This document shows positions 4,177-29,037 of a DNA stretch of 29,037 nucleotides, piece after piece (position 1 is the stretch's first letter; each line of letters starts with the position of its first letter). The notes beneath the pieces are model-generated. The model ran no database searches. It was not told the DNA's origin and was given only the letters and a program-made list of their open reading frames with translations. The position numbers and the translations under genes were made by a program. Origin of the DNA: a virus (taxonomy: Duplodnaviria > Heunggongvirae > Uroviricota > Caudoviricetes); the IMG/VR virus record IMGVR_UViG_3300045988_046105, positions 1 to 29,037 of that record, one strand, 5' to 3'.

Positions 4177-4193
4177 CTTACCTGAAGGGTAAT
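4177..4193. promoter_or_regulatory. operator-like palindrome CTTACC-TGAAG-GGTAAT (site S6) upstream of the portal operon
   Basis: Read directly; sits in the ~420-bp non-coding region 3856-4282 about 90 bp upstream of the first structural-operon ATG. Confidence 0.4.
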
Positions 4194-4282
4194 AATTCGT
4201 GCATTAAATGTCAACTATCTACGATAAATAAATCATATGTGGTTAAATTGGTAATAATTTAATTGCGTACGGAGTCATTGAT

Positions 4283-21822: not shown

Positions 21823-21839
21823 ATCACCCGTGAGGTAAT
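21823..21839. promoter_or_regulatory. operator-like palindrome ATCACC-CGTGA-GGTAAT (site S7) overlapping predicted -10/+1 of the 21155..21694 promoter
   Basis: Read directly; minus-strand promoter TGTACA-N18-TACTAT predicted by eye. Confidence 0.4.
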
Positions 21840-22862: not shown

Positions 22863-22879
22863 TTTACCGCAAAGGTAAT
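22863..22879. promoter_or_regulatory. operator-like palindrome TTTACC-GCAAA-GGTAAT (site S1) overlapping -10/+1 of predicted Bro-N promoter
   Basis: Read directly; minus-strand promoter TTGATT-N18/19-TATCAT predicted by eye. Confidence 0.45.
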
Positions 22880-22955
22880 GATAAGCGCGGATAAATATTA
22901 AAATCAACCGTATTTGGTTGATTGCGTTTAACGCTTGATCACCTGAAAGCAAGAT

Positions 22956-22972
22956 ATTACCTTTAAGGTAAT
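22956..22972. promoter_or_regulatory. operator-like palindrome ATTACC-TTTAA-GGTAAT (site S2) just upstream of RBS of 22992..23720, plus half-site ATCACC-TGAAA at 22938-22948
   Basis: Read directly; perfect 6-5-6 dyad. Confidence 0.45.
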
Positions 22973-24075: not shown

Positions 24076-24092
24076 ATTACCTGAAAGGTAAT
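24076..24092. promoter_or_regulatory. operator-like palindrome ATTACC-TGAAA-GGTAAT (site S3); half-site TTTCAGGTAAT at 24132-24142
   Basis: Read directly; perfect 6-5-6 dyad between the small LexA-box gene and the tailspike gene. Confidence 0.45.
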
Positions 24093-24195
24093 ATCTATTC
24101 GTATTTACAGCCTTTTTATCCATATGTGGTTTTTCAGGTAATAGAATAACCAGATATGCGGCGCAACGGGTGCTGCGACTATCTGGAGATTTAAC

Positions 24196-26325
24196 ATGAC
24201 GGTCTCAACCGAAGTTGACCACAACGAATACACCGGTAACGGCGTTACGACATCGTTTCCGTATACTTTTCGAATTTTCAGAAAATCAGACCTGGTTGTT
24301 CAGGTGTCTGACCTGAACGGGAACGTAACAGAATTGGTCCTGGATACCGGTTATACGGTAACTGGGGCGGGCACTTATAGTGGCGGTTCTGTGGTTCTTC
24401 CGTCTCCGCTTGCTACTGGCTGGCGAATTACGATAGATCGTGTGCTTGATGTAGTGCAGGAGACAGACCTTCGCAATCAGGGAAAATTTTTCCCCGAAGT
24501 GCATGAAGATGCCTTTGACTACCTGACGATGCTGATCCAGCAATGTTTTGGGTGGTTCAGACGTGCATTGATGAAGCCCTCTCTGCTTGCAAAATATTAC
24601 GATGCAAAGCAAAACAGAATTTCTAACCTTGCAGATCCATCACTTGAGCAGGATGCTGTAAATAATCGCTCAATGCGTAATTATGTCGATGCTGCAATCG
24701 CCGGGGTTGTTGGTGGTTTTGGTTGGTTTATTCAGTATGGTTCTGGGGCTGTGTACCGAACGTTCCAGGATAAGATGAGAGACACCATTAGTGTTCGTGA
24801 TTTTGGTGCAAAAGGAGACGGCATAACAGATGATACTGTAGCAATTCAAAATGCTATTAATGCAGTACCAGAAGGGGCTATACTTGGATTTTATGGTGGT
24901 GAATTTGTTTTTGATAAGGTTGAATTGTTTAAGCCAATAACATTAGTTGGTGATGCAACGTTAATTCACAACGGATTTAGAATAAAATCTAGCAGAATCC
25001 GATCACTTTTATCTGGCGTTCAGAAATGCAAGGATTACTCCGAGTCTTCAAGAGCATTTTATTGCTATGCAAATGAAGACCAAAGAGATTATGACGATAT
25101 TCAGATTTTATTTAATAGATTTGAAGGTTTCTTTTACTCTACGGCATTTGTTGCAAAAAACTATTATTTGGAGAATGACCCTAATTCAAGAATTGTCAAA
25201 AACACAAAAGTAATAGGGTGTACATCAGTTGCTCCTGATTCTGTAAATGCCGGTCATTTTCAACATATAGGCGTTACAAATGCTGAAACATCACATAACT
25301 CAACTTATGGCGGACAAAATGCAACATCATACAACTTCATTAACCAGAATGGATTTGTAAGGATTATAGGAAATTATGACCATAACAATAGCTATGGTTC
25401 ATGTGAGCTTGAGAACTCAATGGTGAGTAACTCAGTCATATCAGGTAATACGTTTTCGTCATATTTATGGGTGGATGATACAAGTAATGTTACTATTTCT
25501 GGAAATACCGTTTCATCAAGGATCAAAGTAACATCGCAAACTGACGATGTTCATAATATAACCATATCAGCAAATACCACAAAACGGATTACTATAGAGC
25601 AATTTGGAGAATCGCCGACAGGTCTGGTATATGGTGCATTAATTTCCTGCAACACTATTACTGGCGACAGTGATGGAAGTTCAGACATTTTATGTGCGTC
25701 ACTTGTTACAGGTGAAATTTCATCAAATTATTGTCATGGATCAGAAAAAAATATATCAATTGTCCGCCTGGATTCTTCTGATATAACTGTTAGAAACAAT
25801 AAAGGAAACAAAGGATTACTTACAATAAGTAACGATGGTGGAAGGATAATTGAATATGGCAATGATTCTATGGTTCTGTCTGGAAGCATAGATAGCAGAC
25901 ATATACATAATTTATTACATCCAGACACATCGTATTTAGACCTACCGGGGAAATATCTGCACGGAACTAAATATACTGGCAGTATCCCCCCCGGTTCCAC
26001 AGGAACTGTATCACTTCAAATACCATCAGGGGCAAGCCTTGTTTTCAGGGGCGTTTCTATATGGGTTCTAATTAGAGATGTTAGCAATAACAATATATCG
26101 TCATTCAGAATTGATGGTTCATATAGAGTTGTTGGTGGAAGTGTTGGTCTTAGTTTTGCTGATGCTTATTCGAAACTCGGGGTGGATGCAAACTCTATAA
26201 CAGTGTCAAACAATAACAGCACTTCTGGCAATATCAGCATAGCAATTAAAAACACAGATTCATCAAAAACCCTTCAGGTTACTGTTATGCCGGAGGTTTC
26301 AAGCAGGTTAGGTATTGAGGAATAG
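24196..26325 (+). CDS. tailspike protein with beta-helix (pectate-lyase-like) receptor-binding/depolymerase domain
   Basis: 709 aa, SD TGGAGA; conserved-looking N-terminal module then DFGAKGDGITDDTVAIQNAI motif typical of right-handed beta-helix glycanases; C-terminal two-thirds AT-rich with Asn/Ser/Thr-rich repeats. Confidence 0.85.
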   Translation: MTVSTEVDHNEYTGNGVTTSFPYTFRIFRKSDLVVQVSDLNGNVTELVLDTGYTVTGAGTYSGGSVVLPSPLATGWRITIDRVLDVVQETDLRNQGKFFPEVHEDAFDYLTMLIQQCFGWFRRALMKPSLLAKYYDAKQNRISNLADPSLEQDAVNNRSMRNYVDAAIAGVVGGFGWFIQYGSGAVYRTFQDKMRDTISVRDFGAKGDGITDDTVAIQNAINAVPEGAILGFYGGEFVFDKVELFKPITLVGDATLIHNGFRIKSSRIRSLLSGVQKCKDYSESSRAFYCYANEDQRDYDDIQILFNRFEGFFYSTAFVAKNYYLENDPNSRIVKNTKVIGCTSVAPDSVNAGHFQHIGVTNAETSHNSTYGGQNATSYNFINQNGFVRIIGNYDHNNSYGSCELENSMVSNSVISGNTFSSYLWVDDTSNVTISGNTVSSRIKVTSQTDDVHNITISANTTKRITIEQFGESPTGLVYGALISCNTITGDSDGSSDILCASLVTGEISSNYCHGSEKNISIVRLDSSDITVRNNKGNKGLLTISNDGGRIIEYGNDSMVLSGSIDSRHIHNLLHPDTSYLDLPGKYLHGTKYTGSIPPGSTGTVSLQIPSGASLVFRGVSIWVLIRDVSNNNISSFRIDGSYRVVGGSVGLSFADAYSKLGVDANSITVSNNNSTSGNISIAIKNTDSSKTLQVTVMPEVSSRLGIEE

Positions 26326-26401
26326 CATCATATATAATTATTTTAATGTTAATGCCGTCTTCTTGTTGGCGGCTTATTTGTGAAAATCGAATGAGTTATT
26401 T

Positions 26402-26701
26402 ATGATGAATATAGAAGTTGATATAACACCAATTCTTCACGCACTTTGCGCTGTTGTCGCACAAGTTCTGGTCGGTCTTTTTACCGGAAACTGGGCTTAC
26501 GGTGCGATAGCCGGTTGTACGTTCTTCATTGCGCGTGAACACACCCAGGCAGAATATCGCTGGATAGAAAAGTTTGGGAAAGGGAAACGTATCAACATGC
26601 CGTGGTGGGGAGGTTTTGATCCGCGCGTATGGGATGTTGGAAGCCTGTTTGACTTTGTTGTTCCTGTTACTGTTTGTTTTTGTGTTTATTTCTCTATTTG
26701 A
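26402..26701 (+). CDS. small membrane protein (3 predicted TM segments)
   Basis: 99 aa, hydrophobic; weak SD; first gene after tailspike. Confidence 0.4.
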   Translation: MMNIEVDITPILHALCAVVAQVLVGLFTGNWAYGAIAGCTFFIAREHTQAEYRWIEKFGKGKRINMPWWGGFDPRVWDVGSLFDFVVPVTVCFCVYFSI

Positions 26702-26914
26702 CTGCTACCGCGCCATTTGATGGTGCGGAATTCAACTAATCCTCTATATTTTGAATCATTTCTGTACTGCAATCTCTTCAGAGTTATGTAAAAGGCAAGC
26801 CTTATTATCGACATGAAAGGAAGGGGATTGACAATACATGGGTAACAAAAAACCATAAATGGTTTATCATGCGTAATGCCTTTACTATTCAGGAGGTAGT
26901 TATGCATATAAACG

Positions 26915-27328
26915 GTGGAAAACATGTCAGCTCAACTAACCAGTGAAACTTTAAATCAGTGGCTTAGCATGAGTTCTCTGGCGGCGGTGATAGCAGGAGC
27001 TCCTCCTGAGGTTGCTTTGGGGGCTTTGGCTGGGGCGGTAATTTTTGTTACCTCTGCGGTAGAGTATCCTATTCGTCGTCGTGTACTCTTGTCGATGCTT
27101 AGCTTTCTCTGCGGCCTTCTTTTTTATAAACCAGCAGCATCAATTCTTATCGGCATAGCCAGCCTGATCCCTACCATCACGCAGGACTCTTTTGAAAAAG
27201 GGATTGTTTTCTCAGCTGGCGCATTCGTGTCAGCAATTGTTGCTGTGCGTATTGGTATATGGCTCTATCACCGTTCCGATAATCCACGCGAGTTAATTCC
27301 GGGGAGAAAAGACGATGGTAACGCATGA
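26915..27328 (+). CDS. holin-like membrane protein
   Basis: 137 aa, 3-4 predicted TM helices, charged C-terminus; two in-frame starts (GTG 26915, ATG 26924); position upstream of endolysin. Confidence 0.5.
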   Translation: MENMSAQLTSETLNQWLSMSSLAAVIAGAPPEVALGALAGAVIFVTSAVEYPIRRRVLLSMLSFLCGLLFYKPAASILIGIASLIPTITQDSFEKGIVFSAGAFVSAIVAVRIGIWLYHRSDNPRELIPGRKDDGNA

Positions 27329-27623
27329 GTTTTTTTTGCTTATCACCAATGCAGTTATTTGTACTGGCATAGCAATTCGCGTTGTCACATTCCGGCGTAA
27401 CGGCTCTCAACATCGAAGATGGGGAGGGTGGCTTGCTTATTTCCTTATTGTTGCTGCGGCCAGTATTCCTGTTCGTGTCGTCTATGCAATCTGGTTACGC
27501 ACGCCAATGGCTGTGGATTTATCTGAGGTCATTATCAACGCTGTCATGCTCGCCGCGGTTATTAAAACACGCGGTAACGTTGTTCAGATTTTCAAAATAT
27601 CGAGGTCTAAACATGGAGATTAA
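27315..27623 (+). CDS. membrane protein (second holin/antiholin-like)
   Basis: 102 aa, 3 predicted TM helices, SD GGGGAG; end overlaps endolysin start. Confidence 0.45.
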
Positions 27624-28242
27624 ACAATTCCAGCGAGCTGCTGGTATTAGCGAGTCGCTGGCCGCACGCTGGTTCTCGCATATAACTTCTGCGATGAAAG
27701 AGTTTGGTATCAGCAAAGCAGAAGATCAGGCAATGTTTATTGCTCAGGTCGGGCATGAGTCTGGGGGCTTCACCCGGTTGCAGGAGAATTTCAACTACAG
27801 CGTCAGCGGTCTGGCTAACTTTGTTCGGGCTGGGCGTCTCACTCAGGGACAGGCCAACGCATTGGGGCGACGCGCAGGCGAACCACCATTGCCACTTGAG
27901 CGCCAGAGAGCGATTGCCAATCTGGTGTACAGCAAACGCATGGGGAACAATGCCCCCGGCGATGGCTGGAATTACCGTGGCCGCGGACTTATCCAGATTA
28001 CCGGTTTGAATAACTATCGTGATTGCGGAAACGGCCTGAAAGTGGACCTGCTGGAGAATCCTGAACTGTTGGCGCAGGACGAATACGCGGCTCGTAGCGC
28101 GGCGTGGTTCTTCTCCAGCAAAGGTTGCATGAAGTATACCGGCGATATTGCACGTGTAACTCTGATTATCAATGGTGGCAGGAATGGCATCGACGACCGG
28201 CGCGCGCGGTACGTCACTGCCAGTAAGGTGCTGGCTGTATGA
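27613..28242 (+). CDS. endolysin, glycoside hydrolase family 19 (chitinase-like) type
   Basis: Internal ATG 27613 (track ORF starts upstream at 27382); motifs [12 protein letters not shown] and [15 protein letters not shown] typical of GH19-type phage endolysins (recollection). Confidence 0.8.
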
Positions 28243-28721
28243 TCTGGTCATTCGTAAAAGCATACCGTAAACAGTTGATTATCATGGCGGTGCTTGCTGT
28301 TCTGGTCATATCAGGAGTTGTTGCCTGGAATGTGCACGGCAGTCGTCAGTACGACGCTGGGTATGCACAGGCGAAAGAAGACCGCAAAACCGAAGATGAG
28401 AGAGTTCGTCAGCACTACGAACAGGAGAAATCGATCAATGAACGTGAAGCGCAGCAGAGGATCGACCAGGCGCGCAATGATGCTCTTGATGCTGCCGCTC
28501 GCGCTGGCCGGTTGCAGCAACAGCTCGTTGCCATCCGTGAGCAGCTCAGGCAGTATAACGCCACTGTCGGCGCTGGGTCGTCAGCCGCAGACACCGGAGT
28601 TTTGCTTGCCGACGTGCTCGAAAAATCTCTCGAACGAAACCGGCAACTGGCAGAATACGCTGACCGGGCAGCTGAAGCCGGAAGGGTCTGCGAAAGACAG
28701 TACGATGAACTAACCAGGTAG
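28239..28721 (+). CDS. Rz: i-spanin (Rz-like)
   Basis: ATG overlaps endolysin stop (ATGA); N-terminal TM helix then charged coiled-coil-like region; embedded +1-frame lipoprotein gene. Confidence 0.7.
28438..28713 (+). CDS. Rz1: o-spanin (Rz1-like) lipoprotein embedded in Rz in another frame
   Basis: ATG 28438 inside ORF 28294..28713 gives [26 protein letters not shown] (lipobox LAGC) followed by a Pro-rich short mature peptide. Confidence 0.6.
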   Translation: MNVKRSRGSTRRAMMLLMLPLALAGCSNSSLPSVSSSGSITPLSALGRQPQTPEFCLPTCSKNLSNETGNWQNTLTGQLKPEGSAKDSTMN

Positions 28722-28874
28722 CATGGTATTTTTCATGGTACTGTTTCCCGGTGACGGTATATAAAACGGTACGCAGAATTTATCGTTTCATAAACTTGTT
28801 TTCAGTCAATTGGTTACGAGTGCTGTAAATAATTGAGTGGGAATAATCCCCGGCGTTAGCTGAGTAAAACGAAA

Positions 28875-28901
28875 CCCTCTGTGTTTACAGAGGGTTTTTT
28901 T
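28875..28901. terminator. intrinsic terminator after lysis cassette (bidirectional-looking)
   Basis: CCCTCTGT-GTTT-ACAGAGGG followed by TTTTTTT, preceded by A-rich tract. Confidence 0.6.
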
Positions 28902-28940
28902 ATAGCTGCTACATTAAGGTCTCCCACCTGACGGCAAGCG

Positions 28941-29037
28941 CTAATCGCGCATATATTGATGCATCTGGGCCGCCGTCAGATCCCACTGGCTTCCTTCAAA
29001 CGGGGGCATATAGCTGCCATCATCTTCGCCAATCTCA
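28941..29037 (-). CDS. 3' end of a convergent ORF running off the window (C-terminus ...EIGEDDGSYMPPFEGSQWDLTAAQMHQYMRD)
   Basis: Manual translation of minus strand; open to window edge; stop TAG at 28943-28941. Identity unknown. Confidence 0.25.
   Translation of the reverse strand, partial: EIGEDDGSYMPPFEGSQWDLTAAQMHQYMRD

Follow-up and report, generated by a model that had tools for sequence, protein, structure and literature searches.

A two-hairpin leader with a conserved overlapping reading frame as a candidate translational gate at the lysis cassette of an epsilon15-like prophage

We analysed a 29,037-nt stretch of viral DNA (IMGVR_UViG_3300045988_046105, hereafter the window), and in it the region 26326-28721, where a lysis cassette lies downstream of the tailspike gene and a 14-codon open reading frame (ORF) overlaps the start of the first cassette gene. 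By megablast the region belongs to a Uetakevirus, that is, an epsilon15/phiV10-like prophage: it is 98% identical to the E. coli phages phiv142-3 and EC.W1-9, and in the cassette region the DNA identity is 88% to phiV10 and 81-82% to epsilon15 and SPN1S, with a range of 81-93% across these three phages. Positions 26851-28721 are almost certainly the lysis module of an epsilon15-like temperate podophage, with predicted genes for a PF16931 protein (gp23-like), a PF05449 holin (gp24-like), a GH19 endolysin, Rz and an embedded Rz1 (Table 1). The annotated epsilon15 and phiv142-3 records give an identical five-gene lysis order, and the cassettes of epsilon15, phiV10, phiv142-3 and SPN1S have the same five genes, order and overlaps at 81-98% DNA identity, with nothing essential that differs. 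Neighboring genes overlap along the cassette, gp23 and gp24 by 14 nt, holin and endolysin by 11 nt, and endolysin and Rz by 4 nt, and this layout is suited to translational coupling. An earlier reading of the DNA, the first-pass annotation, had placed three hydrophobic ORFs 5' of the endolysin, and the ORF list and hydropathy profiles agree: the three products, of 99, 134 and 102 amino acids (aa), have two to three, three and three hydrophobic segments, respectively. The hairpin that follows the tailspike stop marks the end of the tailspike transcription unit. The five-gene cassette, the embedded Rz1 and the first of the two leader hairpins described below are already known or annotated.

Table 1. 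Features of the tailspike-lysis region, in window coordinates. SD, Shine-Dalgarno sequence; TMD, transmembrane domain.
Feature	Position	Strand	Remarks
Tailspike, 709 aa	24196-26325	+	5' of the hydrophobic ORFs
Terminator-like hairpin	26354..26373	+	6-bp stem with 5 GC pairs, loop of 8, T-rich tail TTATTTGTGA; just 3' of tailspike stop at 26325
99-aa membrane protein, phrog_1443	26402..26701	+	phrog_1443 match, 6e-55
14-bp dyad AACCATAAATGGTT	26851..26864	.	5' boundary of the conserved lysis module
Hairpin 1, 23 bp, two single-nucleotide bulges	26859..26916	+	-21.1 kcal/mol, z -5.04
AGGAGG SD of mini-ORF	26891..26896	+	5 nt 5' of ATG 26902
Mini-ORF, 14 codons, MHINGGKHVSSTNQ	26902..26946	+	ATG 26902, TGA 26944-26946
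gp23 weak SD, GGTGG	26914..26918	+	5 nt 5' of ATG 26924; GGTGG in 40/47 haplotypes
gp23-like membrane protein, 134 aa, three hydrophobic segments	26924..27328	+	Pfam Phage_holin_8, PF16931; first cassette gene
Hairpin 2, gp23 codons 3-18 (nt +6 to +52)	26929..26975	+	-14.0 kcal/mol, z -2.63
gp24-like holin, 102 aa, three TMDs	27315..27623	+	Pfam Phage_holin_3_7, PF05449
GH19 endolysin	27613..28242	+	Glyco_hydro_19, 38.4 bits (cut-off 25.5)
Rz-type i-spanin	28239..28721	+	DUF2514, 1.1e-39; phrog_312; start overlaps endolysin stop as ATGA
Rz1-type o-spanin lipoprotein, 91 aa	28438..28713	+	ATG start; phrog_11621, 9.8e-39

The 14-codon ORF (the mini-ORF, or upstream ORF, uORF) was described in the first-pass annotation as starting at ATG 26902 behind an AGGAGG. 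Both are present, and together they are the sole full AGGAGG-N4-8-ATG on the + strand of the window; AGGAGG plus ATG alone is not beyond chance, 2 being found against 0.95 expected in 29 kb. The mini-ORF is out of frame with gp23 (offset 22), overlaps both the gp23 ATG and the in-frame GTG at 26915 that is the first possible start of that gene, and ends 20 nt past the gp23 ATG, within the 5' arm of hairpin 2. It had also been said to overlap the holin start codons. The overlap is real, but the gene overlapped is that of the PF16931 protein, and it is the next gene (PF05449) that most annotations call the holin. In the records of Uetakevirus relatives that were inspected the mini-ORF is unannotated.

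To follow the mini-ORF through its relatives we used 86 loci encoding a gp23 relative, which gave 47 distinct leader haplotypes (alignment A1). In 43 of the 47, from six genera, the aligned position holds an ATG, and in 40 an SD with at most one mismatch to GGAGG (in the forms GGAGG, GGGGG and GGTGG) lies 3-7 nt upstream. Prophages of Klebsiella, Kluyvera, Scandinavium, Pseudescherichia and Citrobacter are included, with gp23 73-93% identical; in the Klebsiella, Kluyvera, Scandinavium and Pseudescherichia prophages that carry the mini-ORF ATG this identity is 73-82%. The mini-ORF takes two forms. Twenty-nine haplotypes have a 12-codon form (MHSKRWxLCQxS) at offset 23, which ends with a TAA at gp23 nt +14 (gp23 codons 5-6), and ten have a 14-codon form at offset 22, which ends with a TGA at +21. 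Compared with the epsilon15-type leader, the window clade has a 1-nt deletion in codon 3 that changes the offset to 22, lengthens the uORF from 12 to 14 codons and puts the TGA 7 nt further on. Since this single indel shifts the frame between the clades, the mini-ORF peptide is not conserved; what is kept is the start, the SD and a stop soon after the gp23 ATG. The TAA at gp23 +14 is retained in all four distant genera by way of a Leu codon (CTA or TTA) and an ACN or AGC codon after it. Exceptions at the start codon are three haplotypes with ATA, one of TTG type and one with ATG-TGA. In one leader, L043 (and in L075), the upstream SD and the uORF ATG are missing, the base of hairpin 1 is kept, and an AGGAG stands directly 5' of gp23.

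Two other ways of using an upstream start were considered and rejected. A programmed frameshift from the mini-ORF into gp23 would require opposite shifts in the two clades, given their offsets of 22 and 23, and there is an in-frame TAA at -15. A dual start as in lambda does not fit either: the upstream start is out of frame, the in-frame GTG at 26915 would add Met-Glu-Asn, which is acidic and has no basic residue, and the holin at 27315 offers only one Met.

The 3' arm of hairpin 1 is made up of the start region of the mini-ORF (SD, AUG and codons 2-4), and its 5' arm starts in the right half of the 14-bp dyad. The epsilon15 equivalent has 24 bp and a folding energy of -33.0 kcal/mol (z -8.44). 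Folding of the opposite strand is much weaker, at -8.5 kcal/mol in the window and -12.9 kcal/mol in epsilon15, which shows that the structure is one of the sense RNA, rich in G.U pairs, and not a DNA cruciform. On alignment A1 the 24 pairs are formed in 86.6% of the cells, whereas slid controls reach at most 53.7%; 11 pairs have changed on both sides (at columns 29/72, for instance, 13 sequences have A-U in place of G-C), and none of 500 shuffles reaches the observed covariation value. A 9-bp first version of the hairpin had weak statistics and was replaced by the 24-bp helix. In the epsilon15 RefSeq record an unreferenced "RNaseIII" protein_bind feature at 24755-24817 corresponds to hairpin 1, so that the hairpin, though not the mini-ORF, had been noticed before. 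With at least 20 bp and specific to the sense strand, the stem has the length of an RNase III substrate (about two helical turns). Opening the ribosome-binding site (RBS) of the mini-ORF costs 13-17 kcal/mol in the window and 22-25 kcal/mol in epsilon15 when the hairpin is complete, and 3-7 kcal/mol without the 5' arm. Because the SD and AUG lie in the 3' arm, the SD that had been singled out as the best of the region is probably closed in the full transcript.

Hairpin 2 lies within the beginning of gp23, and its 5' arm holds the stop codons of both mini-ORF forms. Its counterpart in epsilon15 has -16.3 kcal/mol (z -2.90). In the alignment 88.5% of the cells are paired, against at most 39.4% for slid helices, and seven pairs have changed on both sides, a count that 3 of 500 shuffles reach. 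The SD and ATG of gp23 are thus left in a gap of about 12 nt between the two hairpins. Both long hairpins were derived from folds of single sequences and explicit counting of pairs. A search of 26200-29037 with Rfam 15 (E up to 1) found no family, the only hit being a chance-level Phe_leader outside the leader (23.6 bits against a gathering threshold of 55). Nor did a scan for antisense transcription, which used consensus matching only, find a minus-strand promoter-like site near the leader, the nearest being at 27095-27066 (9/12). We consider it likely, from the folding and the pair exchanges, that the leader acts as a regulatory structure of the sense RNA.

Several observations suggest that the start codon may be more than a component of the stem. 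Opposite the G of the AUG there is a U in 32 haplotypes and a C in 11; an A in place of the G is found in only 3, though it would be the better partner for U. In the SD columns the Gs of the 3' side are fixed and their 5'-side partners are C or U, and the sole variation on the 3' side is G or A in the middle of GGNGG, both of which are compatible with an SD. The retained TAA points in the same direction.

We tentatively propose that the leader serves as a translational gate on the first gene, and hence on the whole coupled cassette, and we put this at slightly less than an even chance. That the uORF is translated and positively coupled to gp23 is a part of the proposal that we hold with greater reserve. 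In such a gate, hairpin 1 (23-24 bp) would hide the strong SD and the AUG of the 12-14-codon uORF, while the GGTGG and AUG of gp23, squeezed between the hairpins with hairpin 2 beginning 6 nt past the gp23 AUG, would allow only poor direct initiation. Hairpin 1 would be opened most plausibly by RNase III processing; alternatively, transcripts without the 5' arm would never form it. Ribosomes would load at the freed strong SD, translate the uORF and unwind the 5' arm of hairpin 2, and termination 14-23 nt past the gp23 AUG would be followed by initiation or reinitiation at gp23. The downstream genes would follow through overlap coupling, so that the lethal membrane proteins would stay off until the leader opens and the cassette would then come on together. 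The leader of L043, in which gp23 has a strong SD of its own and the uORF is gone, fits a uORF that supplies ribosomes. The first-pass annotation had proposed translational control of holin timing by the mini-ORF; the conserved mini-ORF is consistent with such control, but in any control of this kind the RNA structure would count as much as the mini-ORF. A fuller version, that Uetakevirus lysis is timed by a three-part RNA gate (a 24-bp hairpin, a 12-14-codon uORF and a second hairpin) in the manner of mok/hok and possibly triggered by host RNase III, is in our estimation rather unlikely.

A number of points weigh against a gate that works through the uORF. The uORF peptide is wholly different between the two clades, and four haplotypes have no ATG, so that the uORF is dispensable in some phages. 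Most of the relatives are close (gp23 at least 92% identical), and the haplotypes are not independent; shared descent inflates the conservation and shuffle statistics, and the close kinship of most haplotypes also weakens the arguments from the start codon. The tested helices were derived from one of the aligned sequences and are thereby favored over slid controls. For hairpin 2, which is located in coding sequence, the covariation score is weak (30 of 500 shuffles). RNAalifold, run on the 47-sequence leader alignment, returns only a small palindrome and neither long hairpin as a consensus. A mid-stem cut by RNase III could part the SD from the AUG and so destroy the uORF RBS, and the GGTGG, with its spacing of 5 nt, may be strong enough to serve gp23 uncoupled. 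In five distant phages (TR2, Brookers, RSA1, PMG1 and yong2) the SDs of the PF16931 genes are ordinary ones and neither a uORF nor a hairpin is present; the leader is specific to the Uetakevirus-type module. Finally, the mechanism is inferred from sequence, and transcripts that contain hairpin 1 are themselves predicted.

The strongest of the other explanations, which we still think doubtful, is that hairpin 1 serves RNase III processing or mRNA stability and sets the 5' end of the lysis mRNA, with the mini-ORF incidental and unused and gp23 translated from its own GGTGG. The stem does outlive the ATG, since L043, L034 and L036 keep it without the start codon; its 23-24 bp are the length of an RNase III substrate and are annotated as such in the epsilon15 record; and in full transcripts 13-25 kcal/mol are needed to open the uORF RBS. 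The lack of conservation of the mini-ORF peptide would be expected too, and the block ATGCAYAKTAAAC is accounted for by its pairing with GTTTATTGTGTAT. Pairing does not explain, however, why G persists opposite U although A is the better partner there, or why the purine run is found on the 3' side throughout, spaced as an SD would be. It also leaves aside the in-frame stop, which is kept at a fixed place by way of rare Leu codons in distant genera, and the gain of a strong gp23 SD in the sole haplotype without the upstream SD and ATG.

A negative role of the mini-ORF would be the reverse of the coupling that we favor, and we think it improbable. Ribosomes at the strong RBS, 22 nt upstream, would occlude the weak RBS of gp23 and keep the PF16931 protein low relative to the holin, thereby setting the lysis time. 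The geometry allows it: the gp23 SD and AUG (26914-26926) are inside the footprint of a ribosome initiating at 26902, and occlusion by an upstream RBS is a described bacterial mechanism (PMC13285730). The holin start, however, lies inside the 3' end of gp23, so that repression would cut the coupled downstream genes as well and would not change the ratio. The replacement of the uORF by a strong direct SD in L043 fits the supplying of ribosomes better than their withholding, and a uORF that stops just past the gp23 AUG has the layout of reinitiation coupling.

Fold-back insulation, as in IS10, would place the -10 element of the lysis promoter in the 5' arm of hairpin 1, so that transcripts from the proximal promoter would be open, read-through transcripts coming from the tailspike or accessory genes upstream would be silent, and the lysogen would be protected. 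There are -10-like hexamers in the 5' arm (TATCAT/CGTAAT here, TATTGT/TATGAT in relatives), the drop in the opening cost from 13-25 to 3-7 kcal/mol without the 5' arm is of the required kind, and the upstream slot carries varied accessory genes. No -35 is conserved, however, nor, within the window clade, is the key -11 A; the divergent upstream genes in epsilon15 and Tyrion limit read-through, and with the gp23 RBS outside hairpin 1 the insulation would be incomplete. This explanation seems to us quite improbable.

Elements of the proposed gate can be recognized in several known systems. In lambda S, dual starts (Met1-Lys2-Met3) in one frame give an antiholin and a holin from one gene, together with the sdi stem-loop. 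The window leader resembles it in having a 5' RNA structure at the first lysis gene that would steer start-site use for lysis timing; in contrast to lambda, the upstream start is out of frame and belongs to an unrelated peptide of 12-14 residues, and the holin-family functions are divided between two genes. In hok/mok, a type I toxin locus, the toxin start depends on translation of an overlapping upstream frame, and folding closes the RBS of that frame until the RNA is processed. The lysis cassette resembles it in having a small membrane-damaging protein, a weak or structured start and an overlapping uORF with its own SD, of which start, SD and stop are kept without the peptide. The uORF is, however, far shorter than mok, the target is a multi-gene lysis operon whose dependence on the uORF would be putative, and no antisense RNA or promoter was detected by consensus matching. 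Long leader hairpins that occlude an RBS, and whose removal or absence activates translation, are known from the lambda N leader, the T7 R sites (RNase III) and IS10 fold-back. In those cases the occluded RBS is that of the regulated gene, whereas here it is that of the uORF, and the cleavage is predicted. New here is the conserved uORF that bridges two hairpins where a coupled lysis operon begins, which would be an undescribed variant of known RNA control; a literature search found no experimental work on Uetakevirus holins, on PF16931/PF05449 or on a holin uORF.

Lysis timing determines the burst size and fitness of a phage, and its translational control has been worked out mainly in lambda S. 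If true, a gate made of a uORF between hairpins would be a second and mechanistically different solution to lysis control, for which the L043 leader offers a natural comparison phage regarding the role of the uORF. Phages of the epsilon15/phiV10/SPN1S type serve as reporter and biocontrol phages, which makes the leader relevant to signals for late and lysis expression. One further structure of this kind was seen in the window: the tailspike leader (24144-24192) has a hairpin of -22.4 kcal/mol (z -3.1) whose 3' arm reaches the tailspike SD (CTGGAG), with no uORF.

The two genes behind the leader belong to holin families. The gp23-like protein matches PF16931 with 44.5 bits (cut-off 26.4; 2e-11) and phrog_198, "holin", with 1.9e-41, and the gp24-like protein matches PF05449 with 95.3 bits (cut-off 25.4; E 2.2e-27) and phrog_217, "holin", with 2e-35. 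The hydrophobic segments of the latter are at residues 6-24, 43-61 and 65-83; R22, R27, R28, R34 and R35 follow TMD1, and the C-terminal tail is basic and charged (K84, R86, K94, R97, K99, D102). By the positive-inside rule alone, an N-out, C-in topology is predicted. With tblastn the 102-aa protein was matched in 229 phage records of many genera and the 134-aa protein in 37, a difference due to the sensitivity of the search. In a sample of five distant phages (Schitoviridae TR2, Lederbergvirus Brookers, Peduoviridae RSA1, Detrevirus PMG1 and Hafnia yong2), the PF05449 gene is in all five immediately preceded and overlapped by a PF16931 gene, as it is in the window, and these partners are of 122-134 aa with 79-94 bits. 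That the pair is kept together across phage families argues for a joint function. Most likely it is a two-component holin or a holin with its regulator (holin/antiholin), in which the gp23-like protein would be the holin partner, a putative co-holin or antiholin. A holin and an antiholin had been suspected among the three hydrophobic proteins; two of them are indeed of holin families, and each may be the holin or the antiholin.

Many records label the pair "holin (x2)" or "membrane protein + holin". Its recognition as one conserved two-gene unit across five phage families is new here, and the "two holins" of many annotations would be one conserved two-component unit. Holin systems of two membrane proteins are known in PBSX (XhlA/XhlB), Ms6 (Gp4/Gp5) and P2 (Y/LysA). 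The Uetakevirus pair is like them in that two adjacent small membrane proteins are encoded upstream of or around the endolysin, and has no sequence relationship to them.

The endolysin, a cytoplasmic enzyme by prediction, aligns with the solved SPN1S endolysin 4OK7 over residues 1-208 (1.7e-116). In its hydropathy profile there is no signal, signal-anchor-release (SAR) or other hydrophobic segment, and without an export segment it is dependent on a holin. In Rz a single N-terminal TMD (about residues 12-32) is followed by a charged periplasmic domain. Rz1 begins with a signal-like segment that ends in the lipobox LAGC (Cys26, Ser at +2), has an SD, AGGAG, at 28423-28427, and matches the annotated epsilon15 Rz1 in length and position. 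It had been reported as fully embedded in Rz in another frame, as in lambda, and this is confirmed: it lies wholly within Rz in the +1 frame (199 mod 3 = 1). The arrangement is that of lambda Rz/Rz1, with an i-spanin that has an N-terminal TMD and an o-spanin lipoprotein wholly embedded in the +1 frame. It differs in the sequence family, which is DUF2514/Bcep176, and in the length of Rz1, which has 91 aa here and 60 aa in lambda. The epsilon15 and phiV10 spanins have been assigned to the Bcep176 i- and o-spanin families (Kongari et al., PMC6139136).

The 99-aa protein has Kyte-Doolittle peaks at residues 8-26 and 79-97, and its AlphaFold2 (AF2) model (pLDDT 90) has helices at 9-28, 31-57 and 79-98. 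It has no match among the Pfam, NCBIfam or PADLOC models, defence families included; Foldseek found no fold match for the model at E <= 0.001 in PDB or BFVD; and the papers on phiv142-3 contain nothing useful on its orf5 that bears on this protein. Its homologues number at least 557, range from Escherichia to Aeromonas and Comamonas, and share the invariant core AREHTQAEYRWI...MPWWGGFD. In every context examined (loci L089-L097) the phrog_1443 gene is directly 3' of a receptor-binding-protein (RBP) gene. In Aeromonas it follows a P2-type tail fibre, in Comamonas a GpJ-like tip protein, and in phage 21 and E. coli lambdoid prophages side tail fibres; in the P22-like phage JEP4 it follows the tailspike gene and overlaps its stop. 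The adjoining RBPs have no similarity to one another, so that no single receptor-binding domain goes with the 99-aa protein. Among the Uetakevirus relatives, the DNA homology common to most starts at about 26899, and only phiv142-3, EC.W1-9 and HEMP4 cover the 99-aa gene. About 20 of 80 IMG/VR relatives have the gene, always 206-226 nt 5' of gp23; in the window a gap of 222 nt with the conserved lysis leader separates it from the cassette.

From these contexts, the 99-aa protein is a predicted RBP-linked accessory membrane protein of the tailspike module and not a lysis gene, and a role in superinfection exclusion, adsorption or ejection would be a guess. The first-pass annotation had allowed for a third hydrophobic protein with a role other than lysis, such as surface modification; the outline of that idea holds, and no evidence links the protein to surface modification. 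Its other version, in which all three membrane proteins, the 99-aa protein included, form the lysis system as holin, antiholin and third factor, is very improbable: the 99-aa gene is hydrophobic in product, on the same strand and just upstream, but most Uetakevirus relatives with the cassette lack it, and it lies outside the boundary of the conserved module at about 26851-26900 and belongs to a family (phrog_1443) that follows tail-fibre and tailspike genes far from lysis genes in lambda-like, P2-like and P22-like phages. The reassignment of the protein from lysis to the RBP-linked accessory class is new here; it corrects a tempting annotation error and draws attention to a large uncharacterised family. 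As a second lead, independent of the gate and in our view likewise on the unlikely side, phrog_1443 may be a widespread inner-membrane partner of RBP genes in podo-, sipho- and myoviruses, acting for example in superinfection exclusion.

In a comparison of the window with two loci (L001 and L098), the slot between the tailspike and the lysis leader (26702-26850) is a variable cargo site. It holds the 99-aa gene in the window and an acyltransferase in Tyrion; in epsilon15 it holds genes for an O-antigen polymerase and a polymerase inhibitor on the opposite strand. The conserved dyad and hairpin are the right-hand boundary of the exchangeable segment.

The 14-bp dyad at this boundary is found in nearly all of the 47 leader haplotypes, even beside unrelated upstream DNA. 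In the window the pattern AWYCRTATRTGGTT occurs four times (4231-4244, 22906-22919, 24118-24131 and 26851-26864), against 0.16 expected for a pattern that was chosen post hoc, and the copies lie 45-90 nt 5' of + strand starts, namely those of the structural operon, a 242-aa ORF, the tailspike and the lysis cassette. It is a candidate operator or promoter element of the late operons. A second dyad, TTACC-N5-GGTAA, has 18 strand-matches against 3.0 expected (0 of 100 shuffles), with sites at 1013-1045, 4178-4192, 21824-21838, 22864-22878, 22957-22971, 24077-24091 and 27048-27062. It lies 40-52 nt 5' of three of the four 14-bp dyads, and a similar element is found 5' of the lysis leader in epsilon15 and Tyrion. 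The two elements, the AWCCATATRTGGTT dyad and TTACC-N5-GGTAA, suggest a possible two-site regulatory architecture of the late operons. A promoter scan of the leader found -10-like hexamers that are not consistently conserved and no conserved -35; the divergent upstream genes in epsilon15 and Tyrion place the lysis promoter within about 150 bp of the leader.

Beyond the cassette, similarity to phiv142-3 ends at about 28847 and that to E. coli prophages at about 28900, and the final 140 nt or so of the window have no match in complete E. coli genomes. The right end aligns with flanking sequence in Klebsiella prophage records, which carry a "phosphatase" annotation there. This end (28847-29037) is probably a prophage-host junction in an enterobacterium other than E. 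coli, and a strong terminator-like hairpin lies at 28872-28897.

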